Assembly: GCA_050302495.1 (NCBI GenBank)
Contig: JBNLBP010000001.1
Coordinates: forward strand, 127,269 to 191,268
DNA: 64,000 nucleotides
Source of the DNA: Candidatus Pacearchaeota archaeon
Lineage (GTDB): Archaea; Nanobdellota; Nanobdellia; Pacearchaeales; GW2011-AR1
Direction of reading: 5' to 3'
Shown piece by piece: positions 5,856 to 50,045 of the stretch. A program made the position numbers and the translations under genes. The notes below the pieces were generated by a model. That model was not told the origin of the DNA. It worked only from the letters and a program-made list of their open reading frames with translations, and made no database searches. Position 1 is the stretch's first letter. Each line of letters begins with the position of its first letter.

Positions 5856-6410
5856 TTATTCAGAAATTTTTCTTCTTTTAGTTAAGGTATCTAGTTTATC
5901 TTGTACTTTATTAAATAATATTGAAGATACAATTGGTTTATGATCTGCTTCATGAATTTGACCATCAAATTTTATCTTTCCTATATAAGCAAAATTTCTA
6001 AGTATTTTCTTTAAACCATTTACGGAAAGTTGGTGTTTTTTTGATAGTGTGTTTAAGTTCATTCTTGGTTGTAAGAACTCTTCGAATATTTCTTCTACCT
6101 CTTCATAGTTTTGAGCTGGAACTAAAACTCCTGAATCATGATTTCTTTTATACCCAAATGGTGCTCTAGACATGTGTAATCCTTTAGAAGATTTCTTTAT
6201 CATCCCAATTTTTTGATTTTCCCCACGGAACTTAGAATATTTTCTTAAAGGTTCAAGATTCTTTTCAAGGATTTTTTCTTCAATATATACATCTAATTCT
6301 TCGGGAGTATTGGGGGAGAAAGTATGGCAAATACTACATAATGTTAGTCCAAACTTACTCTTGTTCTTATCCGAAACATACCCGCATTTTACGCATTTAC
6401 TTTCATTCAT
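5856..6410 (-). CDS. zinc-ribbon protein carrying a serine-recombinase-type recombinase (DNA-binding) domain, without a resolvase catalytic domain
   Basis: N-terminal CxxC...CxxC (CVKCG...CSICH). The remainder matches the recombinase-domain pattern of large serine recombinases (APFGYK...VLVPAQNYEEVEEIFEEF...LKKILRNFAYIGKIKFDGQIHEADHKPIVS..LFNKVQ). Its start overlaps the 3' end of the tyrosine recombinase gene by 8 nt. Confidence 0.55.
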   Translation of the reverse strand: MNESKCVKCGYVSDKNKSKFGLTLCSICHTFSPNTPEELDVYIEEKILEKNLEPLRKYSKFRGENQKIGMIKKSSKGLHMSRAPFGYKRNHDSGVLVPAQNYEEVEEIFEEFLQPRMNLNTLSKKHQLSVNGLKKILRNFAYIGKIKFDGQIHEADHKPIVSSILFNKVQDKLDTLTKRRKISE

Positions 6411-7242
6411 TTTGCATCAATCCATCTATAGGGGATTTTATTTTTTTTAATTGTTCCGTTGAAACGTGAGCGTAAATTTCTGTGGTCGCAAGGTTACTAT
6501 GGCCAAGAAGAGTTTGTATAAATCTTATGTCTGTTCCATTTTCTAATAAATGTGTTGCAAAAGAGTGTCTTAAGGTATGGCAGTGAACATCTTTGTTTAT
6601 TCCTGCTTTTTTTGCTGTATTTGAAACTATTTTTTGCATATTTCTAGGAGTAAGTTTTCCCTTTGGACCTGAGAAAATGTAAACTTGGTTGAATTCTTTT
6701 TGATTTTTAGCACGATTTTTTAGATCTTCATATAAGAATTCGGGAATATTAAACATACGATCTTTCTTTCCTTTAGCTTGTTTTACATAACCTATCTTAT
6801 TATCAAAATCTAGATCATCTATTTTAAGACTAACCAGTTCTGAAACCCGAAACCCACAAGCATACATAAGAGACATCATTAACCTTGATTTCTTATTTGA
6901 AGCGACATCAAACATCCTTTTGACTTCTTCTTTTGTTAAAACTGCAGGGATTCTTTTTTCTCGTTTTGGTCTTTTAATACCTTGAGTTATATCTTTTTTT
7001 AGAATATTTGAATAAGCATATTTAATTGCGGATAAGAAAACAATCGTTGAACTTGAACTTGAATCAGATAATCTCTCAACTAAGAAAAGTTTTAGATCGT
7101 CTTCACTCATATCATCTGGTATTTTATTTGTAAATATGAATAATTCATTGTTTGCTCTTAGATAGTTTCTTAAAGTATAATTGGAATTTTTAGAGATCTT
7201 CAGTTCTATTTCAAGTTTTTTTAGAAATTCTTCTGGAGTCAT
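6403..7242 (-). CDS. xerA: tyrosine recombinase, XerA/XerCD-like integrase family
   Basis: C-terminal catalytic signature HTLRHSFATHLLENGTDIRFIQTLLGHSNLATTEIYAHV. R (RVSEL) and K (GKKDR) are also present. Confidence 0.85.
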   Translation of the reverse strand: MTPEEFLKKLEIELKISKNSNYTLRNYLRANNELFIFTNKIPDDMSEDDLKLFLVERLSDSSSSSTIVFLSAIKYAYSNILKKDITQGIKRPKREKRIPAVLTKEEVKRMFDVASNKKSRLMMSLMYACGFRVSELVSLKIDDLDFDNKIGYVKQAKGKKDRMFNIPEFLYEDLKNRAKNQKEFNQVYIFSGPKGKLTPRNMQKIVSNTAKKAGINKDVHCHTLRHSFATHLLENGTDIRFIQTLLGHSNLATTEIYAHVSTEQLKKIKSPIDGLMQNE

Positions 7243-7243
7243 A

Positions 7244-7909
7244 TTATTTCTTAGGGGCTTTTAGGAAAAGATTTTTCCAAACAGGCTGTTTAAACAGCTG
7301 TTTATTATCTTTGAAAACTATTGTATTTATTCCTAATTTAGAAGCGGGTTTTGTATTCCAAACTTGATTATCAATAAATAATATATTTTTTGGTTTTACC
7401 CCTATTTTTTTTATTAAAAGTTTGAAGATCTCAGGATTTGGTTTTCTCATTCCAGCGTCGCAAGATACAATTATATCATCAAAATTCTTGTAAAGTTTTG
7501 GAGGCATTAGTGCTTTCTTAGATAAAACCCATTGATCTGATAAAACACTTACATTATATCCTAATTTTTTTAGTTTAGATGCCTGATTAAACAGCCATTC
7601 ATTTTGTTTGAAATGTTTTTTGTAAGAATTTATGTATAAACTTCTTACTTTCTTTTCTGAAATTTTGAAGTTTTTTGAAAGTGTAGAAACAACTCTTTCT
7701 GGAGAGATTTTACCTTCTATTGCAAGTGCATAAGTCGTATCTATAGCATCAAGATATTGATCCAATGAAATCTTAAGTTTTTTTGCAATATCTGTGTGTA
7801 CTCCAGATGGAATTAATTTTCCAGATTCTAATTTAGAACTTTCGCCTAGAGCAAGAACTCCGCTTACATCAAAAACAATGGATTTTATGTTGAGATCACC
7901 TTTTTTCAT
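7244..7909 (-). CDS. HAD-superfamily hydrolase
   Basis: N-terminal IVFDVSGVL (motif I-like). C-terminal ILFIDNQ (motif III/IV-like). 1-nt spacing to xerA. Confidence 0.5.
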   Translation of the reverse strand: MKKGDLNIKSIVFDVSGVLALGESSKLESGKLIPSGVHTDIAKKLKISLDQYLDAIDTTYALAIEGKISPERVVSTLSKNFKISEKKVRSLYINSYKKHFKQNEWLFNQASKLKKLGYNVSVLSDQWVLSKKALMPPKLYKNFDDIIVSCDAGMRKPNPEIFKLLIKKIGVKPKNILFIDNQVWNTKPASKLGINTIVFKDNKQLFKQPVWKNLFLKAPKK

Positions 7910-11311: not shown

Positions 11312-11971
11312 TCAATAATTTTCATATTTTGGGTCAAAAAATCCACTTCCTTTATGTTTTGAGAAGAGATCTTCCTTAGGTTCATCAAAAGAATTTGCAC
11401 TTAGGTTATGTTTGTTTTGTTTATTCAGTTTTGCAGTCTCATTTATATTGAATGCGAGATTTGCAAGCTCTGTTGGACTTGGAAAATAATAATTTGTATT
11501 TAAGGTATGTAAGAAATCACTCTCTCCAGAATCAACTTTTGAAGGGGATAGTTTTGTGCTCATATCAGTCGTATGGCCTGCGTCTTTTTTATCAACTTCA
11601 TAATCAATGCCCTTTATTGCACTTAGGTTATGTTTGTTTTTATCTCTTACAAATTTGGAGTCTTTGTGTGCGATAAGTAGATTTTGAAGATTTGTTTTAT
11701 TATTTTTATATTCATTAAATTGTTCTTCAGAAATTAAAGCATAATGATCAAACTCCTCAAGAGATATATCCCCATGCCTTTTTAGTAAAGGGAACCATGC
11801 TGATAGCTTTCCTCCCTCTATATAGTGTATGCCTAATGAATTTTCCTTAGGAATTTGGGCAATTAAGTGAGGCTGACGAATGTTTTGAAAATATTGGCCT
11901 TCTAGATTTTCAATTAATTTAGAATAAAGTGTGTGTTCATAAGGAACGACCTTGAACTCTTTATTTGGCAT
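11312..11971 (-). CDS. hypothetical protein with an internal 24-bp duplication
   Basis: Track ORF. Identical 24-mer TTGCACTTAGGTTATGTTTGTTTT at 11394 and 11617, encoding an NKHNLSA repeat. Confidence 0.4.
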   Translation of the reverse strand: MPNKEFKVVPYEHTLYSKLIENLEGQYFQNIRQPHLIAQIPKENSLGIHYIEGGKLSAWFPLLKRHGDISLEEFDHYALISEEQFNEYKNNKTNLQNLLIAHKDSKFVRDKNKHNLSAIKGIDYEVDKKDAGHTTDMSTKLSPSKVDSGESDFLHTLNTNYYFPSPTELANLAFNINETAKLNKQNKHNLSANSFDEPKEDLFSKHKGSGFFDPKYENY

Positions 11972-12052
11972 TGAAAACTAAATCAGAGGTAATATTTAAG
12001 GATTTGTTTGATAGAAGTATTATAATTACGAAAATTATACACTTAGGTTAGA

Positions 12053-12346
12053 TTAGTCTTTTGGAAGATTAAAGATTACAGCAAATCTTTCTAAGCTATC
12101 TTTTGAATTGGCTTGGGCCTCTAGAAGGCTTTGTTCTTCAGAGTCTATAAATTGGACATGAACCCCTTCAACAAGGTATTTATCAGGCGATACTGAATTT
12201 TCTAGTTGATTGTTGTAAAAGTCTTCTTTTATTGAATCGTATTTATCTTTGGGAATATTCAAAGAAGTGAATCCAAAAAAATCTATACGATCTTTCCAAA
12301 ATTCCTTGCCTTTTTCCCCCACCGTGTATCCTGTGCCAAAGATCAT
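12053..12346 (-). CDS. hypothetical protein (97 aa)
   Basis: Track ORF. No motif. Confidence 0.35.
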   Translation of the reverse strand: MIFGTGYTVGEKGKEFWKDRIDFFGFTSLNIPKDKYDSIKEDFYNNQLENSVSPDKYLVEGVHVQFIDSEEQSLLEAQANSKDSLERFAVIFNLPKD

Positions 12347-12539
12347 AGTGATTGTTAATTCTATCTCTATTTAAAGATTTAGGCTCTAGAATTTCTGAAT
12401 AATTAATAGAACTGCCAGGATGTTGCACTTAGGTTAAGTTAGTATTCTTACTAAAAAATATTGTGAAAATTTTGATTTTAAAAGAATAGTTTTTAATTAT
12501 TTAGTAAATTATTTTATAAAATGACCAAAGAAAATTAGA

Positions 12540-12790
12540 TAAACACCTGTTTAAACAGCGTTTTATCGACGGTGTAAGAACTTGGGTATTTAAGGGTGTT
12601 TGACAGGTTGTTGGAGGTGTTTGAACAGGTGTTGGATAATATTTTGTGTTTTGGGTGATTCTTAAACAGCTGTTTATAGGTGTTTGTAGCTGTTTAGAGA
12701 TGTTTAAACAGGGTGTTTGTTTGTTTTTTTCAAAATAAACGGGTGTTTAAGGGTGTTTATTATGTAAAATTTTATGTTAAAAATAGTGTA
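12540..12790. repeat. intergenic array of GGTGTTT / CAGGTGTT iterations interleaved with CTGTTTAAACAG and AAACAGCTGTTT palindromes
   Basis: At least six exact GGTGTTT copies. Palindromes at 12547-12558, 12662-12677 and 12701-12711. Confidence 0.7.
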
Positions 12791-12865
12791 AAAATTAGCA
12801 TAGAAAAAGGCTTTTTATCGATATAAGAAAGAAAAGTTTATAAACATGCTTTCTTTGTAATTACT

Positions 12866-13507
12866 ATGTTTGGATTATTTTCGAGAAAAAAAGAGATTGA
12901 TGAAGTTAAGGAAGATACAAAAAAAGGATTTGAATCTGTAAAAAAAGATATTACGGCTGTAAGCGGATGGATTAAACACCTAGATTCTGAGCGAGAAATG
13001 CAAAAAAAAGACATTTCTGAGGTTAAAGAAATTTTATCGTCGGTTCAAGAAGAGCTTGAAAGTCTCAAGAACGTGTTTTCTATGATGAATCAAACAGGTG
13101 TTTTGCCAAAAAACAAACAGGTGTTTAAAACACCTGGTAGGGTGTTTGAAGAACAAACAGGTGTTTATGCTGTTCAAACAGGTGTGCAAACGGCTGTCCA
13201 AACACCAAATTTAGAGCAATTTTCAATAACAGAGAGAGCAATTATATGGGTTATGCTAAATAGTGATATGAAGCTTAGTTATGATGATATAGCTGCTATG
13301 TTGGGAAAGGAGAGATCTACTATAAGAGGGCAGATAAATACAATAAAATCAAAGAGTGAGGGCTTAATTGAAGAGGTAATAGAGAAAAATGGTAAAAAAA
13401 GAGTGTTTATACCTGAGAAAATGAAGGAAATAATGCTCAAAAAGGCGAAAGTGAGAGTTAATAAACAAAAAAACGCGAAAAAAACTAAAAAAGTGAGTGA
13501 ATATTGA
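12866..13507 (+). CDS. coiled-coil / QTGV-repeat / C-terminal winged-HTH protein (paralog of 13702..14589)
   Basis: N-terminal K/E coiled coil. Middle region is made of AACAGGTGTTT nucleotide repeats (QTGV peptide repeats). C-terminal HTH-like LSYDDIAAMLGKERSTIRGQINTIK. Confidence 0.5.
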   Translation: MFGLFSRKKEIDEVKEDTKKGFESVKKDITAVSGWIKHLDSEREMQKKDISEVKEILSSVQEELESLKNVFSMMNQTGVLPKNKQVFKTPGRVFEEQTGVYAVQTGVQTAVQTPNLEQFSITERAIIWVMLNSDMKLSYDDIAAMLGKERSTIRGQINTIKSKSEGLIEEVIEKNGKKRVFIPEKMKEIMLKKAKVRVNKQKNAKKTKKVSEY

Positions 13508-13660
13508 AAGAAAATGAGGGTAAAAATGCTAAAAAATAAAGAAAAAGTGAGTGTTTTACAAGAGAATAGGGGCTCGAGTAAAAGCTTAGAAAAAGTGAGG
13601 ACTAATTTATCGACGGAAACAACGTAAAAGTGATAGATTTACAAGATAAAAGAAGTGATA
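13445..13660. repeat. AAAGTGAG iteron-like direct repeats (about six copies at 25-55 bp spacing)
   Basis: Copies near 13447, 13488, 13543, 13592, 13627 and 13653. They span the 3' end of the 12866 gene and the convergent intergenic spacer. Confidence 0.6.
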
Positions 13661-13701
13661 TGAATAGTCAAAGTAATTAATCGGTGTAACGAGAATCGTA
13701 A

Positions 13702-14589
13702 TTAAATATCTCTTAATTGAATTATTGTTTGTAGACTAGCAACTTTCTTTAAATCAGAAGAGACACTTAACTGGATAGACTTGTTATTTATCTTAGTTTT
13801 ATCGACGGGGATACCTTTCTTTATTAGTCTTCCAATATAATCCCTGATGGAGCTCTCTGTAAGCCCTAAAATGCTTGAAATAGCCTTATAATCAGCATAT
13901 CCTTCTTCTTCACATAATTGATATAATGTAGTGAATACTGTCATCTCTTGATCAGTGAGTCTTTTGAACTTTAGACGTATTTCTTTCTTCAAGTTATCAA
14001 GAGAGTTGAGAATTGTCATGGCATCCTTTATTGGGCTTGAAGGAGTCATTTTAGGTATGTTTTCTTGATTGTACGAACTATTATGTGTCTGTTGGTGTGT
14101 TTGTCTGTTTGTCTGTTTGTCTGTTGGAACCCCCCCATTTCCTGTGGAAATACCTAAATTTTGGGGTTCTAAGGGCTTAATATGTGTCGAATCTGTCGAA
14201 TTATGTGTCGAAATAGAGTCATTTATGTGTTGGATTGTCGAATTATGTGTCGAAGCCCTTTTAACAGGGATTTCAGGAGTGTTGGAATATGTGTTTGTCT
14301 GTTTGTCTGTTTGTCTGTTTGTCTGTTGGATAAGTATTTCAGGGTTATTTGGAGAAGAAAGAATACTTGAAAGGGAGTTTTTTTTGGATTGAAGTGTATT
14401 CTCTTTCAGTGATTTAACAATTTCTTTAATCTCATTTAAATCAGAAGAAGTATTATTTAAAGAATCTTTCAATGAGCATATCTCACCATACAAAAAGTCA
14501 ATATCTTCTTTAACTCTCAAAAAGGCCTCTTTTATTTCTTCCATTATTTCAAAAGAGGTATTAGATATAAAAAGATTAAGATAATCCAA
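13702..14589 (-). CDS. coiled-coil / tandem-repeat / C-terminal winged-HTH protein (paralog of 12866..13507)
   Basis: Same architecture as the 12866..13507 gene. C-terminal HTH-like YADYKAISSILGLTESSIRDYIGRLIKKG. Middle region encoded by (TTGTCTGT)n arrays and GAATTATGTGTCGAA repeats. Confidence 0.5.
   Translation of the reverse strand: MDYLNLFISNTSFEIMEEIKEAFLRVKEDIDFLYGEICSLKDSLNNTSSDLNEIKEIVKSLKENTLQSKKNSLSSILSSPNNPEILIQQTNRQTDKQTNTYSNTPEIPVKRASTHNSTIQHINDSISTHNSTDSTHIKPLEPQNLGISTGNGGVPTDKQTNRQTHQQTHNSSYNQENIPKMTPSSPIKDAMTILNSLDNLKKEIRLKFKRLTDQEMTVFTTLYQLCEEEGYADYKAISSILGLTESSIRDYIGRLIKKGIPVDKTKINNKSIQLSVSSDLKKVASLQTIIQLRDI
14085..14340. repeat. intragenic tandem arrays: (TTGTCTGT)4-5 at 14090-14135 and 14293-14335, and GAATTATGTGTCGAA x3 at 14181-14255
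   Basis: Read directly. On the coding (minus) strand these give KQTNRQT and STHNS peptide repeats. Confidence 0.75.
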
Positions 14590-14597
14590 GATAATGT

Positions 14598-14867
14598 TTA
14601 ATTTGCTAGCTTCCTATAAGAAGAATATGCTTTATCAGATAGTTTCCATCTTGATCGTTTCAAATAAGGTATACCTGAAGGATTTTTCTTTATTTCATTA
14701 ACAAGACCTTTCTTTTTTAGCCTAAGTAATAAAGTTTTGGTGAATTCTTCATCCCTCACAACTTCATGTGCAACATTAATTGTGAAAACTGCTTTAGGAG
14801 ATATAGAAAATAGATATGAAATGATTTGTTCACATATTCTCTCTTTTTTTTGTTCTGAAATACGCAT
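14598..14867 (-). CDS. small basic protein, possible winged-helix DNA-binding
   Basis: 89 aa, directly upstream of 13702..14589 on the same strand. K/R-rich C-terminus. Confidence 0.35.
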   Translation of the reverse strand: MRISEQKKERICEQIISYLFSISPKAVFTINVAHEVVRDEEFTKTLLLRLKKKGLVNEIKKNPSGIPYLKRSRWKLSDKAYSSYRKLAN

Positions 14868-14946
14868 AAGGAGGATAAGAAAATACTTTTTTTAAATATG
14901 ATGTATTATATAATAAATTAGAGTAGGAATAATTAGCAAATTTAAA

Positions 14947-15387
14947 TTATTTCTTTGGAGAAGAACCTTGTGCAGAATTCTTAGCTGGTTTCACCGAGGG
15001 TAAAGGCACATGAGAAGGTAAATTTATTTCTTCTTCCAATTGAAGAGCTTTAAGATTACATTTCTTTAAAATAACATTGAATAAAGGTAATCTGAATTCT
15101 TCAGGAACAGATTTTTTAGCCCATTCTTTTATAAATAATTCCGCTTCTTTAGCTGGCATTGATACTAAAACCATTCCTGAAAAGAATATCTTAGCAAACT
15201 TAGGTTCATATGAGATCTCATAACTAAAATCAACACCTAGAAGAGATTCTTTTGATTGAATAACATCAGACTTAACGTCTTTTACGTCTGCAATATCTAT
15301 ATTTGTATTAACCTTTAAGTTTTCAACAAGTGTTTTAGAATATTTCTCTGCACCAATTTTAGAAAAGTTAAAACCAACTAATTTCAT
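14947..15387 (-). CDS. hypothetical protein (146 aa)
   Basis: Track ORF. No motif. Confidence 0.4.
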   Translation of the reverse strand: MKLVGFNFSKIGAEKYSKTLVENLKVNTNIDIADVKDVKSDVIQSKESLLGVDFSYEISYEPKFAKIFFSGMVLVSMPAKEAELFIKEWAKKSVPEEFRLPLFNVILKKCNLKALQLEEEINLPSHVPLPSVKPAKNSAQGSSPKK

Positions 15388-15467
15388 AATACCAAGAGAA
15401 AGTTTTTGTTTTTAAATATTTTGGTAGTTGAAAAGGATTGTTAGTCTTTTTTATTAGAATAATCTAA

Positions 15468-15728
15468 TTATATTAAGTCTTCTTCAGAAACAATAACGAA
15501 GTCTCCTATAGCTACAATAGAGCTATAAGGTATTAACAGCTCGTTTGAAGATGTTTTCTCTAGGTTAAGATTTCTGGTATAGGGAGTTGTATCTTTTACA
15601 ACGATATTAATTAATTCCCCAGATCTTGTCTCAAAGAGAATATCCTTAACAAATCCTAATCTTTTTCCCTCTTTTGTTACAATCATTTTACCCACAAGAG
15701 CATTGAAAGGAGTCTTTTCTGTTTGCAT
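15468..15728 (-). CDS. PRC-barrel domain protein
   Basis: 86 aa. The GKMIVTKEGKRLGFVKDILFETRSGELINIVV pattern is typical of small archaeal PRC-barrel proteins. Confidence 0.6.
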   Translation of the reverse strand: MQTEKTPFNALVGKMIVTKEGKRLGFVKDILFETRSGELINIVVKDTTPYTRNLNLEKTSSNELLIPYSSIVAIGDFVIVSEEDLI

Positions 15729-15813: not shown

Positions 15814-15985
15814 ATAATAATAATAATAATAATAAATTATTATATATAACACCCCCACCCCATTACTTCTTATGGAAATATTTAAAAAGAAATTGATTGA
15901 CTTTTTCTTTTTTATTTTATTTAAAAAAATTTATATTATATATTATATATATAATATAAATAATAATAATAATAATAATAATAAT
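15814..15985. repeat. (AAT)n microsatellites (about 7 and 8 units) within the origin AT-rich region
   Basis: aataataataataataat runs at 15814-15836 and 15957-15985. Confidence 0.8.
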
Positions 15986-16146
15986 TGTTCTATTTGGTGA
16001 TTATTTAGAAATTGTTCTCCATAGGAAATAAAGGTGTTTTTATTTCTTAGTGATTATAATCCTTTATATAATAAACTCCGTTTTCTCCGTTGGTTATGTT
16101 CCTTTGGAGGTATTTTCCACAGGAAATAAACGTGTGGGTGTGATAA
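15845..16146. promoter_or_regulatory. predicted chromosomal replication origin (oriC): AT-rich unwinding element flanked by ORB-like dyads, immediately upstream of orc1/cdc6
   Basis: ORB-like elements TCTCCATAGGAAATAAAGGTG (16015-16036) and TTTCCACAGGAAATAAACGTGTGGGTG (16124-16150). A third copy lies on the opposite strand at 15849-15880 (TTTCCATAAGAAG..GGGGTGGGGGTG) with a G-string. A >90% A+T stretch containing an (AAT)8 run sits between the inverted elements (15881-16010). An inverted core TTCCTTTGGA is at 16100. Confidence 0.6.
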
Positions 16147-16148
16147 AG

Positions 16149-17360
16149 ATGGCATTAGATATTGATGGTTTGTTTAACTCTTTTCATAAAGAGGGTATAT
16201 TCAAAGATAAAAGCTTACTACAAATAAACCATAAACCTGAAGAGATTCCTCATAGGGATGAACAGATAAAGCAAATTGTTTCTATTCTGGCTCCTGTACT
16301 TAGGGGTGAGAAACCTAGTAATCTTTTTGTTTATGGTAAAACTGGTACTGGTAAGACTCTTTCTGTTCAATTTGTTCAAGATGAATTAATAAGGAGATTC
16401 TCTAGAGAATCTGATTTTAAGCTTAGAATTGAATATTTAAATTGTAAACTTAAGAAGATTGCTGATACAGAATATAGAATCCTTGCGGAATTAATTAAGA
16501 AACTAGGTGGTGAGGTTCCTGAGACTGGCTTGCCTACTCAGTCTGTTTATGGTAAATTTGTAGATTTAGTAGATACTGAGAAACAATTGATTGTTTTAGT
16601 TTTAGATGAGATCGATCAAACTGTTAAGAAAATTTCTAGTGACTTTCTTTATAACCTTACTAGATTAAACTCCGAATTATCTAAAACTCAAATTTGTGTG
16701 GTGGGTATTAGTAACAATCTTACTTTTTTGGATGAATTAGACCCAAGAGTTAGAAGTTCACTGAGTGAAGAGGAGATAGTTTTTCCCCCATATAATGCTG
16801 TTCAGTTGCAAGAAATTTTGAATAAGCGTTCAAATGTTGCATTTAGGGAAGGTATTGTTGAAGAAGGTGTTATTGCTAAGTGTGCTGCTTTTGCTGCTAG
16901 AGAGCATGGTGATGCTAGAAGAGCATTAGATCTCTTAAGAGTTGCAGGGGAATTGGCTGAAAGAGCGGGTTCTGAAAAAGTTTTACTCGAACATATAGAT
17001 CAGGCCAATGATAAAATAGAAAAGGACAAGATTTTGGATATTGTTGAATCTGAACCTAGGCAATTTCAACTTGTATTATACTCCATTATAAATCTAATTG
17101 AGAAAGATAAAGATCATTCTATATTTACAGGAGATGTTTACAACTATTATCAGGATTTATGTTCTAAGAATCGATCAGAAGTTCTTACTCAAAGAAGAGT
17201 CTCAGATATAATACAAGAATTTGACATGTTAGGTATCATTAATGTAAGAGTTATTTCTAAGGGTAGAGGTGGGAGAATGAGGGAAATAAAGTTAGCTATT
17301 TCAAATAATATATTAAATAAGGTTAAAGAGATCATTGAACACTCTCTTAATTATAGATAA
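16149..17360 (+). CDS. orc1: Orc1/Cdc6 replication initiator
   Basis: AAA+ Walker A GKTGTGKT. Walker B VLVLDEID. C-terminal winged helix. N-terminal MALDIDGLFNSF...INHKPEEIPHRDEQ is typical of Cdc6. The ATG at 16149 is preferred over the track's alternative start at 16050, which would run through the ORB elements. Confidence 0.9.
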   Translation: MALDIDGLFNSFHKEGIFKDKSLLQINHKPEEIPHRDEQIKQIVSILAPVLRGEKPSNLFVYGKTGTGKTLSVQFVQDELIRRFSRESDFKLRIEYLNCKLKKIADTEYRILAELIKKLGGEVPETGLPTQSVYGKFVDLVDTEKQLIVLVLDEIDQTVKKISSDFLYNLTRLNSELSKTQICVVGISNNLTFLDELDPRVRSSLSEEEIVFPPYNAVQLQEILNKRSNVAFREGIVEEGVIAKCAAFAAREHGDARRALDLLRVAGELAERAGSEKVLLEHIDQANDKIEKDKILDIVESEPRQFQLVLYSIINLIEKDKDHSIFTGDVYNYYQDLCSKNRSEVLTQRRVSDIIQEFDMLGIINVRVISKGRGGRMREIKLAISNNILNKVKEIIEHSLNYR

Positions 17361-18940
17361 TGGGTGATGAAATTGTTAAATTTTGTTTTGAAAGGGGCTT
17401 ATTATTAGATAATGAAATACTTGATTTGTTTAGACAGGAGAATGATTTTGAATCGGTCAAATTAGTTATAGAGAAAATAAAGAGTAAAACTCAAGAGAAA
17501 ATAATTACTAGAGATGTTCTATCTGTTAATCAGGAGAAAATAAGACAGGTTTTTTTGGAACTTCCTTATGAAAAACAGAAAATACTTGAGAATTTGAAAA
17601 TAAAGTTGGGTTTGAGCATAGAAATATCTAGAGAGATTAAACAAGAGGTAAGCACTTCTTTTAATTTAGAAGAACCAAGTGTTAAAATTTTTGATTCTCC
17701 TAAGCTTGTTGAGAAGAAGTTAGAAGTTCAGGATTTTACTAAGTATTTTAGGTCTAGATTTGATCAAATGAAGGGGGTTCTTATGACCCATTCCGCTTTG
17801 AATAATCTTGTTTCAATAAATAAGATTTCAGGTAATAGGTCTAATTTTTCCTTGATTGGCATTGTTAGGGATAAAAGTGTTACTAAAAATAAAAATCTTA
17901 TGTTAGAGGTTGAAGATTTTACTGGAAAAATAAAGGTTCTTATTAATCAAAATAAGAAGGAAGTTTATGAAGAAGCACAAGATATTGCTCTTGATTCGGT
18001 GTTAGGGTTTAGTGGTTCAGGGAATAGTGAGATATTTTTTGCTAATGAGGTTATTTTTCCAGATTCTATGCTTCCAGAGAGAAAAAAGGCTTTTGTGGAG
18101 GAATTTGCTCTTTTTATTGGGGATTTACATTTTGGAAGTAAGAGGTTTTTGAGAAAAGGTTTTGAGAATTTTATAAATTATATTAATGGCGATGCTGGTA
18201 ATAGAGATGAAGTAATGAAGATAAAATATCTTTTTTTAGTGGGAGATGTTGTTACGGGTGTTGGAAATTATCCTAATCAAGAGCCTGATTTAGAAATAAA
18301 TGATCTTGAGGAACAGTTTACTCAATTGGCAGGCTTGTTGGGGAGGATAAGAAAAGATATTAAGATTATTATTTCTCCTGGAAATCATGATGGTGTTAGA
18401 ATTATGGAACCTCAACCCTTACTCAATGAAAAATATGCTTGGCCTCTCTTTGATATGGATAATGTGATTATGACTACAAACCCTTGCAATGTTAATATTG
18501 CTTCAAGGGAAGGATTTTCTGGTTGGGATATTTTGACTTATCATGGTTTTTCATTTCCTTATTATGCTGGAAATATACCTTCTTTAATAAAAAAGAAGGC
18601 TATGAATTCCCCTGAAGAAATTATGAAATTTTTACTCAAGAATAGACATCTTGCTCCAACCCATGGTTCTACCCAGTATTATCCTTTAGAAGAAGATTCT
18701 TTGTTTATAAAAAAGGTCCCAGATATATTGGTTTCTGGACATACTCATAAAGCAGGTATTGTTTACTATAATAATATCCTAATTATTTCAGTTGCTTGTT
18801 GGGAAGGGATGACTCCTTATCAGGAGAAGTTTGGTAATAAACCGGATCATTGTAAGGTTCCAATGGTTAATCTTAAGACAAGGTCTGTTAAAATTCTTGA
18901 TTTTGAGGATCTTGAAGAGACTGAAGAGAAAAGCGTTTAA
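17360..18940 (+). CDS. DNA polymerase D small subunit (DP1, 3'-5' exonuclease, calcineurin-like phosphoesterase)
   Basis: MPP motifs GDLHFGS, GNHD and GHTH with an N-terminal OB-like region. 1-nt overlap with the orc1 stop. Confidence 0.88.
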   Translation: MGDEIVKFCFERGLLLDNEILDLFRQENDFESVKLVIEKIKSKTQEKIITRDVLSVNQEKIRQVFLELPYEKQKILENLKIKLGLSIEISREIKQEVSTSFNLEEPSVKIFDSPKLVEKKLEVQDFTKYFRSRFDQMKGVLMTHSALNNLVSINKISGNRSNFSLIGIVRDKSVTKNKNLMLEVEDFTGKIKVLINQNKKEVYEEAQDIALDSVLGFSGSGNSEIFFANEVIFPDSMLPERKKAFVEEFALFIGDLHFGSKRFLRKGFENFINYINGDAGNRDEVMKIKYLFLVGDVVTGVGNYPNQEPDLEINDLEEQFTQLAGLLGRIRKDIKIIISPGNHDGVRIMEPQPLLNEKYAWPLFDMDNVIMTTNPCNVNIASREGFSGWDILTYHGFSFPYYAGNIPSLIKKKAMNSPEEIMKFLLKNRHLAPTHGSTQYYPLEEDSLFIKKVPDILVSGHTHKAGIVYYNNILIISVACWEGMTPYQEKFGNKPDHCKVPMVNLKTRSVKILDFEDLEETEEKSV

Positions 18941-18995
18941 TTATATGTTTTAGATAACATATTAGTATTAAAATGGAAAAATATTTTGATTAAAA

Positions 18996-19595
18996 ATGGT
19001 AGAAAAATTGAAAATAGGTATAGATATTGATGATGTTGTTGCAGAATTTTTTAAACCCTATTTGGAATTTCATAATTCTAAGTTCAATACCTCTCATGAT
19101 TTTGAAGATATTACAAATCCTTTTATTTGGGAACAACTGGGTTTTAGTGTAGAAGAGATGCAACCTCATTTTGAAGATTTTGAAAAGAATTCAACCCCTG
19201 TGAAAGATTTTCCTTTGGTTGAACATTCTAAGGAAGCAATAGATGAATTGGCAGAGACTTGTGACATTTTTATTATTAGTTCAAGACCCAATAAACTTTT
19301 TGATGAAACTGTTTTATTTTTTGAAAAGAATTTTCCTGGAAATAATTTTGAAATTATTTTTTCAGGAGAGATCCATGATGAGGATAAACGTAATTTATCG
19401 AAGCATGAGATATGTAATAATTTGGGTATAAATGTTATGGTTGAGGATAATCCTACTTATGCTTTTGAGTGTGCAAGAAATGGGATAAAGACTTTTTTGA
19501 TAGACCGGCCTTGGAATAGGGTTTTTGAGGAACATGATAACATAATAAAAGTTAATGGTTGGAAAGAGGTGTTGGATCACTTAAATGATAAATGA
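18996..19595 (+). CDS. 5'(3')-deoxyribonucleotidase-like HAD phosphatase
   Basis: N-terminal KIGIDIDDVVAEF (DxDxV motif), typical of the NT5C family. Confidence 0.6.
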   Translation: MVEKLKIGIDIDDVVAEFFKPYLEFHNSKFNTSHDFEDITNPFIWEQLGFSVEEMQPHFEDFEKNSTPVKDFPLVEHSKEAIDELAETCDIFIISSRPNKLFDETVLFFEKNFPGNNFEIIFSGEIHDEDKRNLSKHEICNNLGINVMVEDNPTYAFECARNGIKTFLIDRPWNRVFEEHDNIIKVNGWKEVLDHLNDK

Positions 19596-19917
19596 TAAAG
19601 GTGAATTAGTTATGGAATTGATGCATGAAGAGGAAAAGAAGGAAATTTTGAAGATAGGTCTTGTTTATAATGTTCAGGTTGGAGAAAGTAGTGTAAGGTC
19701 AGGTATTTTGACTAGTAAAAATAGAAATGATCTTTATAAAATTCTTGTAAATAGTTTACCTGCAGATAGGATGAATGATCCCCGGATTTATCCTTTTAGA
19801 GAATATTCTTTTGAAAATGATTTGTTGAAAATTCGTTGTTCTTCTGGACCTGAAATTATTTCAAAATATTCTAAGAAATATAGGGAGCTTAAACCGTTTT
19901 TAGAGAAATTAGAATGA
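19585..19917 (+). CDS. hypothetical protein (110 aa)
   Basis: Track ORF overlapping both neighbours by a few nt. No motif. Confidence 0.35.
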   Translation: MINDKGELVMELMHEEEKKEILKIGLVYNVQVGESSVRSGILTSKNRNDLYKILVNSLPADRMNDPRIYPFREYSFENDLLKIRCSSGPEIISKYSKKYRELKPFLEKLE

Positions 19918-22900
19918 AAACTGAAACATATTTTGAAAATTTGAAGAAAGAAGTTGATAAGGTTTATGTAGTAGCAAATGAAGCTAGAAGAAAGGGTTTT
20001 GACCCTGTTGATGAAGTCGAGATACCTTTGGCTATGAATATGGCTGAGAAGGTTGTAGGTATTATTTCTACAGTTTACCCTCAAATGTTGAATTCGGGAA
20101 TATCTAAAAGAATTGTTGAGCTTGAGAAACAATTTGGAAAACTTGATGCTACTGTCTCATTTAAAATTGCGGAAGAAGTTGCAAAACAGAAATTTTGTAA
20201 GTTTGAAAATACTCTTGAAGCAATGGATGCGGGTATACGTGTTGGTTTTGGTTATCAGACAATAGGTGTTGTATCTTCCCCAATTGAAGGATTTACTGGG
20301 TTGAAGGTTCGACATACTAAAGATGGGAAAGAGTATATTGAAGCAAGTTTTTCTGGACCTATTCGTTCGGCTGGAACGACGGCTTCTTGTATTGTTTTGA
20401 TGATTATTGATTTTTTGAGGGAGACTTTTGGTTATGCGAAGTATGATCCTACTGATGATGAAATTAAGAGGGTTTGGACCGAATTAGAGCATTTCCATGA
20501 CCGTATAACTAATTTGCAGGGAATGCCTACAGAAGCGGAAGCATTGTTTTTAGCTGAGAGAATGCCTATACAGGTTGCAGGTGATGCTTCTGAAAGAATT
20601 GAAGTTCCAAATTATAAAAATCTTGAAAGGGTTGATACCGATTTTTTGAGGAGTGGTTTTTGTTTGATTATGGCTGAAGGGTTATCTCAGAAAGCAAAGA
20701 AGGGTTTTAGATTGTATACTAATGCTAAGAAAAATGGAGTAAACATGACTGGTTTTGATTGGCTGGATGAATATCTCGTCTTACAGGAGAAGATTAGTAA
20801 AGGTAAGACCAAATCTGTTAATTCTGTTCCGCCTTATATTAGAGATTTGGTTGCAGGTAGACCTGTATTTGGCCATCCATCGCGAAGTGGAAGTTTTAGA
20901 TTTAGATATGGTAGAGGAAGAAATTCTGGGTTCTCTGCTGCTTCAGTACATCCTGCTACTATGGCAATATCTGATAATTTTATTGCTGTAGGGACTCAAT
21001 TGAAAATAGAGAAACCAACAAAGGGTTGCGCAATAAGTTCTTGTGACTCAATTGATGGCCCTATTATAAAATTATTTAATGGAAGTGTAAAGAAACTCCA
21101 TAATCAACAGGAAGCTAAGCAATATTATCCTGATACAGAAGAAATAATTTATTTTGGAGATATTCTCTTCCCTTTTAGTGATGTTTTGAATAGAAATTAT
21201 AATTTGCTTAAACCTGGTTATGTTGAAGAATGGTGGGAATTGGAGTTGAAAGAGAAAAATCCTTTAGAAGAATATCATGGTTTTAATCTAAAAATTGATG
21301 AAGCAATTAATTTGAGTAAAAAATATGGTGTTGCATTGAATCCTAAATTTATTTTTTATTGGACTCAGATTTCTAAAGAGCATTTTAGGGGGTTGATTGA
21401 TTGGCTGAAATATTCTAAGGTTGATGGAAAAATTATTTTGCCTTACGAAAAGAATAGCAATGAAAAATTTATTTTTGGAAAGAGGGCTTTGGAACTTTTA
21501 GGTATTGAGCATGATGTCACATTAGAACATGTTGTTTTATCTGAATTGAATTCAAAGGCTTTACTGGTGAACCTTGGTTTGAATCTTGATGTTCATTTAT
21601 CTAGAACTTTGAAAGAAGAAATAGATGGTTTGGAGAAAAAGATTAACTTTGATAGCGAAAATATTTTGGAAGAAATTAATAAAGTTTCAGAATTTTTAAT
21701 AAAAGATAAAGCTGGAGATTTTGTGGGTGCACGGATGGGTCGTCCAGAAAAAGCAAAATTGAGAAAACTGACCGGTAGTCCAAATATTCTTTTTCCGGTG
21801 GGTAATGAAGGAGGGAGATTAAGGAGTTTACAAGCCGCTTGTGAAATTGGTAAAGTTTTTAGTTCGTTTCCATTAAATTATTGTGAGAAATGTGCTAAAG
21901 AGACTATTTACCCTAAGTGTGAAACTTGTGGTGAAAAAATCAGGGAGCAATTTTATTTTCCACGTCTTAAGGAGAAGAGTTTTTCAAAAGAGATAGAAGG
22001 TTCGGATAGACCTGGTATGAGGTATTCAGGTAGATCTATTGATATTAATCACTATTATTCTAATGCTTTGGAGCTTTTAAAAATGGATAAGAATGAAGCA
22101 CCCGTTTTGATAAAAGGTATAAGGGGTATGAGTTCAGAAGGTAAGGAAACAGAACATTTGGTTAAGGGTATTTTAAGGGCCAAATATGGTTTGCAAGTAA
22201 ATAAGGATGGTACCATAAGGGTTGATGGGACTGAGTTGCCCGTTACGCATTTTAAACCAAAAGAAGTTTCAGTTAGTGTTGAGAAATTGAAAGAAATTGG
22301 ATATGATTTTGATATATATGGTAAACCTCTTGAGAATGAAAATCAAATCTTGGAAATAATGCCTCATGATGTTATTTTGCCTTGTAGTCCTGATTCTCTT
22401 GATGAGAAATGTGATGATGTTTTTTCTAAAGTTTCTAATTTTGTTGATGAGCTTTTGACTAAATTTTATGGTGTTGGTAATTTTTATAATGTGAAGAAAA
22501 GAGAAGATCTTGTGGGAAAATTGGGTGTTTTTATGGCACCTCACAATTGTGCAGGAGTTGTTTGTAGGTTTATTGGTTTTTCAAAAACCCAAGGGCTTTT
22601 GGCTAGCCCTTATATGCATGCTGCAGTTAGAAGAGATTGTGATGGAGATGAGGCTGCAGTTATGTTGTTGGGTGATGTTTTATTGAATTTCTCAAGAAAA
22701 TTCTTGCCAAGTCATAGGGGAGGTACTCAAGATGCTCCTTTGGTTTTGAATGCTAGGATTGATGCTGGAGAGGTTGATGATCAAATCTTGGATTTTGAAG
22801 CAACACCTGAAGGTCATTACCCTTTATCTTTGTATAAACTTGCAGAACAAGGAAATCATTCAAGTGAAGCTAAAGATGTTGTAATTGTTAAAACTGTTTT

Positions 22901-49432: not shown

Positions 49433-50045
49433 TTACATCTTCCCCAATTTCTTCTTTTTTTGAAGGTTCTTTTGGGATTTCTTTTTTTATTTCTGGTTTA
49501 GCACTTTGTATTTTGTCTTTTATTTTTTGCAGTTCTTCGTTTGAAGCATTTTTTCTTTCTGTTTCAAGTGTATCTCCGTATACTGGTATTAGGTTGATTA
49601 TTGCATGGCCAAATAGTTCGCTATTTTCTTTTACTACATCTTTGGGGTTTAGTGTTTTTTTTATTTGTTCTTTTACTTTGTCTGCAAATTCCTCCGCATC
49701 TTTTGAAGGCATGTTTGAGTGTTCTCTGGGTATAACAATTGTATGCCCTTCTGATAAAGGGTTTATTTCAAGTACAGCCATGGAGTTGTTATCTTCTGAT
49801 ATTTTTACTGAGGGAGAATTTCCAGATGAGATTGCACAAAAAATACAATTTGTTTCTCCGTCTCCAGGATTTTCTCCTGGGTTTTTTATGGCTCCACTTT
49901 TTTTCAAAAAATCTATTAGTTCATTGTCAGGCATCGAAGAAAATTTATCGATGGATTCTTTCTTCTTATCTTCGGGATATGAAGAATTTATTTGACTTAT
50001 TAGTTGATTTCTTATTTCGTTGATTTGCTCTGATGTAAACTCCAT
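49410..50045 (-). CDS. HIT-like protein with N-terminal extension (histidine triad appears degenerate)
   Basis: CIFCAI...LEINPLSEGHTIVIPREH matches the HIT N-terminal half. A canonical HxHxHxx was not found. Confidence 0.45.
   Translation of the reverse strand: MEFTSEQINEIRNQLISQINSSYPEDKKKESIDKFSSMPDNELIDFLKKSGAIKNPGENPGDGETNCIFCAISSGNSPSVKISEDNNSMAVLEINPLSEGHTIVIPREHSNMPSKDAEEFADKVKEQIKKTLNPKDVVKENSELFGHAIINLIPVYGDTLETERKNASNEELQKIKDKIQSAKPEIKKEIPKEPSKKEEIGEDVIIPKRIP

Follow-up and report, generated by a model that had tools for sequence, protein, structure and literature searches.

The replication origin of a Candidatus Pacearchaeota archaeon (Nanobdellota) is flanked by a 2.2-kb module saturated with short repeats, many of them inside two genes for putative DNA-binding proteins, and the question is what such a concentration of repeated elements does there. 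It was addressed in a window of 64,000 nucleotides (the whole stretch analysed, from contig JBNLBP010000001.1) and in related genomes. The reading that we on balance prefer is that the module is a chromosomal protein-binding DNA field, partly written into the coding sequence of the two genes. These genes, and the putative promoter of the first, are as follows.

12837..12845, plus strand: TATA-like box TTTATAAAC of the putative gene A promoter, ~21 nt before the ATG
12866..13507, plus strand: gene A, 213 aa (coiled-coil helix, disordered linker, winged HTH)
13702..14547, minus strand: gene B, 280 aa (coiled-coil helix, long disordered linker, winged HTH)

The coordinates of gene A and the end and strand of gene B agreed with the preliminary description, which had placed the gene B start at a TTG at 14589; the start is most likely the ATG at 14547. 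The 280-aa product is identical to the database protein P0001. The sole other contig with the exact gene B ends at ~14127, within the first octamer array described below. Upstream of gene A, the aligned regions of relatives carried a 'aaaacaTTTTTAAA'-type box at the place equivalent to the putative promoter element TTTATAAAC, with a CGACGAAAA box ahead of it.

The AlphaFold2 model of the gene A protein showed a helix at residues 2-76 and a winged HTH (wHTH) at 119-191, and that of the gene B protein a helix at 2-62 and a wHTH at 171-279. Residues 77-118 of A and 63-170 of B were devoid of secondary structure, with a pLDDT<50 for most of 79-110 and 68-166, respectively. The C-terminal domains were modelled with a pLDDT mostly ≥90 (≥86 per 10-residue block) and had the H-H-H-beta-beta order of the winged HTH fold; Foldseek gave this fold a probability of 1.0, with matches to MepR, MarR, CadC and ST1889. 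The N-terminal helices of A and B matched each other in BLASTP (E=4e-8) and the HTH parts in hhalign (E=4e-6). On the basis of these comparisons and models, A and B are distant paralogs, each predicted to combine a long N-terminal helix, a disordered linker and a C-terminal MarR-like winged HTH, and the single architecture first proposed for the pair was thereby borne out. The ParB-, AspA- or Rep-like folds considered at the same time were not recovered: Foldseek gave only MarR/ArsR-like folds, no ParB, SegB or AspA homology was found, and no match reached the Pfam gathering thresholds (best for B, HTH_36 with 23.5 bits vs a cutoff of 25; HTH_ParB, E=0.021 and 15.4 bits vs 22.6; all matches of A at E≥0.0048, under cutoff). 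Gene A had more than 2600 database relatives, with 67-81% identity among the matches listed. Throughout the family the peptide motifs QTGV (A) and STGNxGVPTDRQT (B) are retained, and the gene B linker has a variable part that changes in length from species to species (195-387 aa) with the frame kept.

The gene order A (+), B (-), wHTH-89 (wH89), p146, PRC-barrel, oriC and orc1 was conserved in 80 species-level genomes; these loci were the best-scoring relatives of gene A, and as a sample of how deeply the module is conserved in the phylum as a whole they are uneven. Gene B, present in 80/80 loci, is the final gene of the minus-strand run PRC-barrel, p146, wH89, B. The remaining synteny genes were found in 59-74 loci, with absences mostly on loci that end early, and orc1 is followed by PolD DP1 and DP2. 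An XerA-like recombinase gene lies near the module. All genomes recovered here with the module were of the Woese-/Pacearchaeales type (Nanobdellota). At least six motif families occupy the linkers and the flanking non-coding DNA and are locus-restricted in relatives, every repeat family recurs at equivalent relative positions in the 80 related genomes, and the core arrays have a constant length and frame across species. The picture of a repeat-dense, iteron-like module coupled to two paralogous DNA-binding proteins was thus upheld, both by enrichment and by conservation in the 80 genomes.

The position of the module beside an origin was confirmed as well, and one canonical origin recognition box (ORB) was located within the module.

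14124..14150, minus strand: canonical ORB in frame in gene B, TTTCCACAGGAAATGGGGGGGTTCCAA, encoding ISTGNGGVPT
15855..16141: canonical oriC with three ORBs and an AT-rich tract with TA/ATA repeats
15877-15855 (minus strand), 16017 (plus strand) and 16115 (plus strand): the oriC ORBs, the plus-strand pair 98 bp apart
16149: start of orc1

In the gene B linker the ORB takes the form TTTCCAnnGGAAAT-nnA-GGGGTTCC, followed by (CAGA)n, and its consensus over 72 loci, TTTCCAnnGGAAATgaAGGGGTTCC, matches the published archaeal ORB consensus GTTCCAGTGGAAAC-AAA----GGGGG (PMC1868953). The core at 14150-14138 (minus strand) reads TTTCCACAGGAAAT, the 72-locus core consensus is TTTCCAnnGGAAAT, and many relatives have TTCCAGTGGAAA on one strand. 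This 13-nt core dyad matches TTCCAGTGGAAAC, with TTCC and GAA conserved, and the G-string GGGG(TTCC) follows 3 nt after GGAAAT in 72 loci. The element was the only PWM match above 18 bits in the 64 kb. Its encoded peptide was found as a match or near-variant to a loose pattern in 135 of 148 diverse B representatives, and similar peptides were visible in the remaining 13. The gene B ORB is a candidate binding site of Orc1/Cdc6. It is inverted relative to the two orc1-promoter ORBs, 1.9 kb away, and is separated by three genes and ~1.7 kb from the AT-rich tract (15880-16015). The orc1-proximal ORBs directly flank this AT-rich tract, unlike the gene B ORB, beside which no conserved AT-rich unwinding element was found in the module; the suggestion of an independent secondary origin was not supported. 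The clustering of ORBs beside orc1/cdc6 has an equivalent layout in relatives: of the 21 relatives listed, at least 13 have a 97-98 bp ORB pair and ~7 a minus-strand ORB at -283..-593. GC skew over the 64 kb did not independently locate the origin.

The commonest motif of the module, M1, is a lineage-specific dyad of the form TTAAACAG-(0/1)-STGTTTAA. Its two arrays, one ahead of gene A and the other within that gene, are 2.6-3.6 kb away from oriC.

12540..12760, plus strand: upstream array of M1 dyads and half-sites
12541-12558, 12664-12675 and 12706-12718: M1 dyads of the upstream array
12595, 12616, 12679, 12689, 12712, 12742 and 12752: STGTTT half-sites of the upstream array
13092..13206, plus strand: intragenic M1 dyad array of gene A, encoding the linker NQTGV..KQVFKTP..RVF..QTGVYAVQTGVQTAVQTP

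GGTGTTT occurs 26 times in the window vs 9.5 expected, a count reached in 0/100 shuffles, so that the enrichment first described withstood comparison with shuffled sequence; 14 of the 26 copies fall in 12541..13206. For AAACAGSTGTTT (up to one mismatch), 15 strand-hits were obtained vs 1.4 expected. Dyads are almost absent elsewhere in the 64-kb window; a double dyad is located 37 bp upstream of a xerA-like gene. Among 78 related loci, plus-strand GGTGTTT had 200 copies at -300..-100 vs ~1 per bin elsewhere, and in relatives GGTGTTT and full dyads were essentially confined to -300..-100 and +200..+300 from the gene A ATG. An unbiased 8-mer search recovered the M1 motif, with the top 8-mers enriched 100-230 fold. 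In the upstream array the most frequent half-site spacing was 10 bp (111 cases), with a further peak at 13 bp (73 cases); a spacing of 10 bp places the direct repeats about one helical turn apart, as in iterons. The recognition helices and the dyad motif are both nearly invariant among relatives, and the combination of a dimerising helix with a wHTH suits dyad sites.

Further motif families surround these arrays and continue through the A-B spacer into gene B.

11395, 11617 and 12037, all plus strand: further copies of the M6 element
12423..12443, plus strand: M6 element TTGCACTTAGGTTAAGTTAGT at the left edge of the module
12562..12572, plus strand: M2 box, copy 1 of 4
13033..13043, plus strand: M2 box inside gene A, codons 57-59 (TTA TCG TCG)
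13448..13461, plus strand: M7 element AAAGTGAGAGTTAA inside gene A, codons KVRV
13490..13659, plus strand: purine-rich M7 stretch, with AAAGTGAG at 13490 (inside the gene A 3' end), 13544 and 13592 (spacer)
13606-13616: M2 box in the A-B spacer
13798..13808, plus strand: M2 box inside gene B, P-V-D/E-K, minus-strand codons CCC GTC GAx AAA
14086..14125, minus strand: octamer array of gene B, sense-strand ACAGACAA-type repeats encoding TDKQTNRQTHQQT
14181..14254, minus strand: 21/22-nt array of M5 repeats, TATGTGTCGAA / TGTGTTGGA on the plus strand, STH/PTH-type linker repeats
14292..14327, minus strand: second octamer array, TGTTTGTC x4.5 on the plus strand, in the variable part of the B linker

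M6 had four matches in the window vs 0.00 expected; relatives carried 1-4 copies between -1500 and -300 relative to gene A, with the plus strand accounting for 108 of the 109. M2, TTTATCGACGG, was present in three exact copies and one with a single mismatch (13033) in the module region, and a fifth match with one mismatch lies elsewhere in the window at 49944; 0.3 were expected. In relatives, TATCG[AT]CG is limited to the module locus and CCGTCGA occurs at +800..+1000 on the minus strand. The M7 11-mer had 89 copies in relatives, in the gene A 3' end and the A-B spacer. What had been described as a six-copy repeat consists of four exact copies of AAAGTGAG in 13448..13599 and two AAGTGAT variants at 13627 and 13652; its whole-window count alone is not significant, and the motif is conserved in relatives. 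The A-B spacer has a median length of 197 bp and is 57-76% purine in 18 examples, and AAGTGAG was present in 65/81 spacers. Within gene B, both octamer arrays of the preliminary description were retained, and its 15-mer array was replaced by the 21/22-nt array. The counterpart of the first octamer array in relatives is (CAGA)n, encoding TDRQTDRQT, and of 329 copies of ACAGACAGAC in relatives all but 6, which were unassigned, fell in bins spanning gene B. The second is an extra ACAG-type copy in this genome, with similar QT-rich repeats at its place in 2/16 aligned homologues at the protein level. M5 copy number varies by lineage, and in relatives TGTG[CT]TGGA and TGTGTCGA cluster within gene B and in the region before gene A.

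The codons of the in-gene repeats were compared with background usage. Third positions were conserved at 0.92-0.94 in the linkers vs 0.58-0.71 in the folded domains, and codon fixation in the linkers was significant for A (Mann-Whitney p=4.5e-5) and B (p=3.2e-8); no codon-fixed columns were found in three neighbouring genes. In the gene A linker, Thr is ACA in ~95% vs 53% background, Gly is always GGT, Ala always GCT, and Gln in KQVF is CAG. At the M7 element of gene A, Val is GTG in 99% of genes vs 25% background. The rare TCG is used in ~90% of 78 genes at both Ser columns of the gene A M2 box (KL 1.5-1.6); the evidence here is weaker than for the remaining columns, as a codon family may become fixed wherever Ser is conserved. 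In gene B, the M2 box has Val GTC in 95% vs 22% background and Pro CCC in 78%, the octamer array has Asp GAC (56/56 vs 22% background) and Gln CAG (56/58 vs 27%), and the ORB has TCC (59/59), GGA (56/56), GGG (58/59) and CCA (47/47). Moreover, the M1 dyad is read in two reading frames, and amino-acid changes track motif variants: G/A/P correspond to GGT/GCT/CCT, V/L to GTG/CTG, and KQ vs NR to the 12-mer vs the 13-mer dyad (KQ[VL]F and NR[VL]F, respectively). These patterns indicate that the in-gene 'tandem repeats' are DNA elements under nucleotide-level selection, and it seems fairly probable that the linkers owe their peptide sequences (QTGV..., STGNxGVPTDRQT...) largely to the DNA elements that encode them.

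With moderate confidence, we consider the module to be a nucleoprotein field that flanks the origin. Orc1/Cdc6 would bind the ORB of gene B, coiled-coil dimers of A and/or B would bind the dyad arrays cooperatively and cover ~0.7 kb, and both would join in a higher-order complex beside oriC. Such a complex might tune initiation, by sequestration or delivery of Orc1 or by insulation of the origin, and might feed back on the transcription of A and B. Alternatively, wH89 or a factor from another locus could bind the dyads. More tentatively, and with less conviction, the linkers of these two phylum-wide proteins may have been 'DNA-first': an origin iteron field of one canonical ORB and lineage-specific dyads would have been overprinted by, or would have given rise to, the middles of binding-protein genes, the cis-elements would dictate the peptide, and A and B would be previously unrecognised Nanobdellota origin-binding factors acting with Orc1 in an accessory initiation, regulatory or tethering role.

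Several features of the locus would also be expected if A and/or B were autoregulated MarR-like transcription factors, with the dyads as operators (upstream and as an intragenic roadblock), the ORB allowing Orc1 to repress B, and no role in replication. Their fold is MarR/ArsR-like, an array lies just upstream of the putative gene A promoter, and the double dyad before the xerA-like gene is what a small regulon would show. We nevertheless regard this explanation as unlikely: an operator needs 1-2 sites, and here 10-15 extend over ~0.7 kb and into coding sequence whose codons are fixed phylum-wide, at least five further motif families co-localise with them, the synteny with oriC and orc1 is fixed, and there are almost no other dyads in the 64 kb.

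Decidedly improbable, in our judgement, is a centromere-like segregation site, in which the dyad arrays would be origin-proximal centromeres and A/B ParB/SegB-like binders that hold or move new origins. As in partition systems, repeated palindromic sites occur near and within a binding-protein gene and close to oriC. PRC-barrel proteins are linked to archaeal cell division, and a PRC-barrel gene is a neighbour here, with the XerA-like recombinase nearby. Against this stand the MarR-like folds of A and B, their lack of ParB/SegB/AspA homology with HTH_ParB below threshold, and the composition of the conserved block, as no ParA/SegA Walker ATPase was found among A, B, wH89, p146 and PRC-barrel and the sole ATPase is orc1.

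Synonymous constraint alone cannot separate DNA-level from RNA-level selection, and the conserved nucleotides might in principle belong to an overlapping small RNA, an mRNA structure or a translational pause or recoding signal. This is very improbable, given that the motifs are also found on both strands and in places that are not transcribed or have the opposite orientation, that the 12-nt dyads leave no room for a hairpin loop, that one element conforms to the ORB consensus and is seen again at the orc1 promoter, and that an Rfam search of the region gave no family match. Selection of the QT-rich linkers as peptides, with the DNA repeats as by-product, would account for the family-wide conservation of QTGV and STGNxGVPTDRQT; it is scarcely credible and already largely refuted, since synonymous codons are fixed against background usage, one DNA motif is read in two frames, replacements follow motif degeneracy, and the motif also fills the non-coding upstream region and the segments are predicted to be disordered. 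Hardly any credence is left for a replication/partition module of an integrated plasmid or virus, or for a phase-variable contingency locus, as initially envisaged from the iteron density and in keeping with the length variation of the B linker, and this too is largely refuted by the chromosomal synteny fixed in 80 species, by core repeats invariant in sequence, length and frame among the loci compared, and by searches in which IMG/VR and PLSDB gave no relatives, PHROGs no significant match, and no Rep family was found for A, B, wH89 (Pfam, NCBIfam, PHROGs) or p146 (Pfam, PHROGs). Invariance across relatives had been named beforehand as a refuting outcome; the comparison found the core elements conserved and invariant, which argues against a mobile or phase-variable nature, leaves an iteron function unharmed and, if anything, strengthens it.

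The locus offers a concrete testable map in a group, the DPANN archaea, whose replication origins lack experimental characterisation and for whose ORBs a literature search found no describing paper. The map contains a canonical oriC with three ORBs, one outlying ORB within a gene, iteron families that are new, and two conserved candidate origin-binding proteins, and A and B could be studied in vitro though the host organisms are uncultured. As a naturally occurring example of dual-use sequence the linkers are unusually clean, with third positions better conserved than those of folded domains in these genes. Sequences of this kind can mislead analyses of dN/dS, the annotation of repeats and arguments from the conservation of disorder. 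The ORB-encoding peptide together with the dyad array might serve as in-silico markers of oriC in fragmented Nanobdellota bins.

Among known systems, MarR/ArsR regulators have the C-terminal fold in common with A and B, all of whose Pfam matches were below gathering thresholds; unlike these regulators, A and B are predicted to dimerise through a 60-75-residue N-terminal helix and have a disordered linker of 40-110 residues before the wHTH. In Bacillus subtilis, parS lies inside spo0J (parB) near oriC, and archaeal SegAB and AspA-ParB-ParA systems exist. The module resembles these in its origin-close palindromic sites, some within the gene of the putative binder, and in arrays suited to cooperative spreading, and differs from them in lacking ParB/SegB/AspA homology and a partner ATPase in the conserved block. 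WhiP of Sulfolobus is a Cdt1-like protein with tandem wH domains. In the account relayed in PMC4010727, oriC3-WhiP is a replicator-initiator pair (Samson et al., 2013, PMC3607249). As there, a winged-helix protein is encoded beside non-ORB repeats that are proposed to be its targets; unlike WhiP, A and B each have one MarR-like wHTH and a coiled coil, and an AT-rich DUE is absent from the module. The DnaA-box clusters datA/DARS of E. coli are functionally comparable to an ORB cluster of Haloarcula hispanica. According to the summary in PMC4010727, this downstream cluster was proposed as a negative regulator of oriC2 (Wu et al., 2014). By analogy, the module may likewise hold an initiator site outside the unwinding region, placed to modulate the origin; in contrast to the Haloarcula cluster, it consists mostly of dyads unlike ORBs. 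In Pyrococcus and other Thermococcales, an ORB/mini-ORB cluster lies inside dp1 beside oriC-cdc6 (Matsunaga et al., 2007, PMC1904270). Both there and here, Orc1-type boxes are found inside a protein gene a few kb from oriC, are lineage-conserved and share the neighbourhood oriC, orc1, dp1 and dp2. The module differs in that the gene around its ORB encodes an uncharacterised wHTH protein and is found on the opposite side of oriC, in that it has a single full predicted ORB with (CAGA)n and several non-ORB families, and in that this ORB sits in a disordered linker, the peptide of which is apparently dictated by the DNA element.

At least six conserved DNA motif families make up a field that flanks the origin beside oriC; part of the field is overprinted on two paralogous winged helix-turn-helix (wHTH) genes, and it carries a bona fide origin recognition box (ORB) sequence. 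The gene order A(+), B(-), wH89(-) (an 89-aa wHTH protein), p146(-) (a 146-aa protein), PRC-barrel(-), orc1(+) was kept across 80 species-level genomes, taken as the best-scoring relatives of A. Gene B was present in 80/80 loci and the other block genes in 59-74 (p146 and wH89 in 72-74), most gaps being loci that end early. The protein relatives came from Pacearchaeota, Woesearchaeota and Nanoarchaeota (Nanobdellota) metagenome bins. Three loci (L017, L032 and L050) carry the archaeal A, B, orc1 block yet are titled Patescibacteria group bacterium, 'bacterium' and Bacillota bacterium; these are probably mis-binned or mislabelled contigs.

Downstream of orc1, the small and large subunits of PolD, DP1 and DP2, are encoded at 17360-23396, with a 5'-nucleotidase-like gene between them. 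The order oriC, orc1, dp1, dp2 is the same in Thermococcales (PMC1904270), and the orc1 and PolD neighbourhood places the module next to the chromosomal origin region. The origin comprised the following features.

Features of the origin region
15855-16148: canonical oriC, one minus-strand ORB, AT-rich TA/ATA repeats and two plus-strand ORBs
15877, minus strand: ORB with G-string
16017, plus strand: ORB, 98 bp from the ORB at 16115
16115, plus strand: ORB, its end ~8 bp short of the orc1 ATG (16149)
16149..17360, plus strand: orc1/cdc6 (NCBIfam score 483 bits)

The orc1 start was taken as 16149 because the conserved protein begins MALDID; the GTG start listed at 16050 is probably wrong. The AT-rich tract with its TA/ATA repeats lies between the minus-strand ORB at 15877 and the plus-strand ORBs. 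Of the 21 relatives listed, at least 13 share the 97-98-bp spacing of the plus-strand pair, and in the distal plus-strand ORB GGTGTTT stands in the place of the G-string. A mini-ORB-like site with one mismatch and without a G-string at 18383(-) in dp1 is probably due to chance. The GC skew over the 64 kb followed gene orientation and did not pinpoint the origin. A sigma-70 promoter and intrinsic-terminator scan, the wrong model for an archaeon, did no better than on shuffles. Between oriC and the module runs a conserved series of minus-strand genes spanning 14598-15728, PRC-barrel (15468..15728), p146 (14947..15387; no family match) and wH89 (14598..14867), followed by B; the whole series is transcribed away from oriC.

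AlphaFold2 predicted for A (12866..13507, plus strand) a helix at 2-76, no secondary structure at 77-118 (pLDDT<50 over most of 79-110) and a wHTH at 119-191. The corresponding parts of B (minus strand) were a helix at 2-62, no secondary structure at 63-170 (pLDDT<50 over most of 68-166) and a wHTH at 171-279. A and B are distant paralogs: their N-terminal helices matched by BLASTP (E=4e-8) and the HTH parts by hhalign (E=4e-6). The shared architecture of coiled-coil helix, middle region and HTH proposed in the preliminary description is borne out; for B the start was revised, most likely to 14547 (280 aa). More than 2600 database relatives were found for A (those listed 67-81% identical) and more than 2000 for B (those listed ~45-59% identical), and an exhaustive profile search gave 881 clusters of B at 50% identity. 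Searches of A and B against Pfam, NCBIfam and PHROGs returned sub-threshold HTH and coiled-coil matches only, a PDB sequence search with the family profiles nothing significant, and Foldseek against PDB generic MarR/ArsR folds that point to no specific family.

The repeat families first described were recovered. GGTGTTT occurred 26 times in the window (9.5 expected; 0/100 shuffles reached 26), with 14 copies within 12541..13206. AAACAGSTGTTT gave 15 strand-hits at up to one mismatch (1.4 expected in the window). TTTATCGACGG was present as three exact copies and one single-mismatch copy in the module region, with a fifth, one-mismatch copy at 49944 (0.3 expected), and AAAGTGAG as four copies in 13448..13599 plus two AAGTGAT variants. 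TRF and a repeat finder detected two octamer arrays (14086-14125, 14292-14327) and one array with a 21/22-nt unit (14181-14254). The only other contig with an identical gene A (Logan SRR36185838) stops at about window position 14127, within the first of the octamer arrays of B, probably because the assembly broke at the repeat; array copy numbers in short-read assemblies therefore call for caution.

Related loci were aligned on the ATG of gene A. Plus-strand GGTGTTT amounted to 200 copies at -300..-100, against ~1 per 100-bp bin elsewhere. An unbiased 8-mer search found ACAGGCTG, GGTGTTTA, TAAACAGG and GCTGTTTA enriched 80-230 fold; combined, they define a dyad, TTAAACAG-(0/1)-STGTTTAA. Full dyads were nearly confined to two intervals, -300..-100 (172 copies) and, within gene A, +200..+300 (113 copies). 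Successive half-sites were most commonly 10 bp apart (111 cases) and next 13 bp (73 cases). TATCG[AT]CG, AAGTGAGAGTT, ACAGACAGAC, TGTG[CT]TGGA/TGTGTCGA and CACTTAGGTTA were each limited to fixed places in the module. All of the repeat families are conserved motifs confined to the module locus. A map of 9-mer presence in the loci helped only with GC-containing motifs, as AT-rich sequence made it too noisy for the rest. Two identities for the dyad were rejected: a variant ORB for Orc1 (its core ACAG|CTGT is unlike TCCAnnGGA, and it is absent from the orc1 promoter) and a XerA dif site, a single 28-bp site as opposed to multi-copy arrays.

A further 21-nt element, M6, (G)TGCACTTAGGTTAnnTTAGT, was located upstream of gene A.

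Copies of M6
11395-11415, plus strand: within ORF 11312..11971(-)
11617-11637, plus strand: within the same ORF
12037-12057, plus strand
12423-12443, plus strand

The two copies in the ORF encode NKHNLSA twice. Relatives have 1-4 copies at -1500..-300, mostly a few hundred bp apart, and the spacer from M6 to the first dyad is about 0 to 150 bp. With M6 the iteron field may reach further left. A HAD-hydrolase gene (7244..7909, minus strand) contains near its 3' end, at 7279-7304, a double dyad, AAACAGGCTGTTT AAACAGCTGTTT, which encodes KQLFKQPV; the gene for a XerA-like tyrosine recombinase (6403..7242, minus strand) follows 37 bp downstream of this double dyad. Similar dyads lie in or near the xerA/HAD genes of some relatives, and in 38/80 loci xerA or HAD (mostly both) is encoded no more than 6 kb upstream of gene A. 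Where the A-B spacer ends, beside the B stop, 12 of the 17 displayed relatives have a short inverted repeat of the TTATTCGGTATAACGAATA type, present in degenerate form (TTAATCGGTGTAACGAGAATCG) at window ~13664-13700; it may serve as a terminator or as a further protein site.

The linkers of A and B are constrained at the nucleotide level. Third-codon-position conservation in the linkers reached 0.92 (A) and 0.94 (B), versus 0.58-0.71 in the folded domains, and linker columns differed from the rest of the gene (Mann-Whitney p=4.5e-5 for A, 3.2e-8 for B). Ser columns were left out of these statistics, since such columns can fix a codon family. In the A linker, Thr is ACA in ~95% of genes (background 53%), Gly always GGT (33%), Ala always GCT (39%), and Val GTT, GTC or occasionally GTG and never GTA; in KQVF, Gln is always CAG (26%), followed by Val-GTG or Leu-CTG. 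The G/A/P-variable residue is GGT/GCT/CCT, the exact S-S centre of the dyad, which is translated in two frames (QTGV and KQVF), and in species with TNRVF, not PKQLF, a 13-mer dyad replaces the 12-mer. In the B segment S-T-G-N-x-G-V-P-T-D-R-Q-T the codons were TCC in 59/59 (background 12%), GGA 56/56, GGG 58/59, CCA 47/47, GAC 56/56 (22%) and CAG 56/58 (27%). Smaller embedded elements are constrained likewise (TTA TCG TCG and AAA GTG AGA GTT in A; CCC GTC GAx AAA in B). The constrained segments coincide with the predicted disordered ones, and codon analysis of the three neighbouring genes gave no constrained column. The in-gene tandem repeats are DNA elements, not peptide repeats.

Gene B contains a canonical ORB at 14150-14124 on the minus strand (TTTCCACAGGAAATGGGGGGGTTCCAA; 72-locus consensus on the B sense strand TTTCCAnnGGAAATgaAGGGGTTCCaACAGACAgACAGAC). 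It matches the published euryarchaeal consensus GTTCCAGTGGAAAC-AAA----GGGGG (PMC1868953) and shares the TTCC/GAA core with the Pyrococcus ORBs (PMC1904270). Like other ORBs it varies at the two central bases and in the spacer, and these positions account for the T/I and E/Q/R/K differences within the B protein. Among 148 diverse representatives of the family, a loose pattern picked up a match or near-variant of the encoded peptide in 135, with similar peptides visible in the other 13. A PWM built from the gene B ORB sites gave no other strong match in the 64 kb. The box is inverted relative to the orc1-proximal plus-strand pair, 1.9 kb away, and is therefore outlying and outside the unwinding region. 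The module itself lacks a conserved AT-rich element in the aligned loci, the M6-to-dyad spacer being of variable length.

From these sequence features we infer which protein would occupy which motif. Orc1 would bind the intragenic ORB of B, and coiled-coil dimers of A and/or B the dyad arrays. The recognition helices and the dyad half-site are both essentially invariant among relatives. The resulting Orc1-A/B-DNA complex may modulate initiation and autoregulate A and B. Alternatives were ranked as transcription factors, segregation site, RNA, peptide repeats and mobile or contingency locus. That A and B are plain autoregulated transcription factors is unlikely, though it leads these rivals. 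A centromere-like segregation site is still less probable, as neither an ATPase partner nor ParB/SegB homology was found. A function at the RNA level is very improbable: at Rfam gathering thresholds the whole window held two tRNAs only, so no known RNA accounts for the conserved nucleotides. Peptide-level repeats are largely refuted by synonymous codons fixed against background and by the dyad being read in two frames. The chromosomal synteny in 80 genomes, the lack of relatives of A in IMG/VR and PLSDB and the lack of a significant PHROGs match exclude a mobile module such as the plasmid or viral one suggested at the outset; the reading as a mobile or contingency locus is largely refuted.

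Literature searches turned up no account of these motifs, proteins or ORBs in Nanobdellota, and a 2026 preprint with 208 complete genomes rotated to orc1 leaves ORBs unmentioned. ORBs inside a neighbouring gene are already known from Thermococcales (PMC1904270), so this kind of arrangement is known; new are the genes that host the elements, the iteron families including the dyad, and the extent to which cis-elements set the sequence of conserved disordered linkers. The model for Orc1 on the ORB of B is Pyrococcus dp1, where Cdc6 is bound at an ORB cluster inside the gene (PMC1904270). Comparable, too, is the downstream ORB cluster of Haloarcula, for which a negative action has been proposed (PMC4010727).
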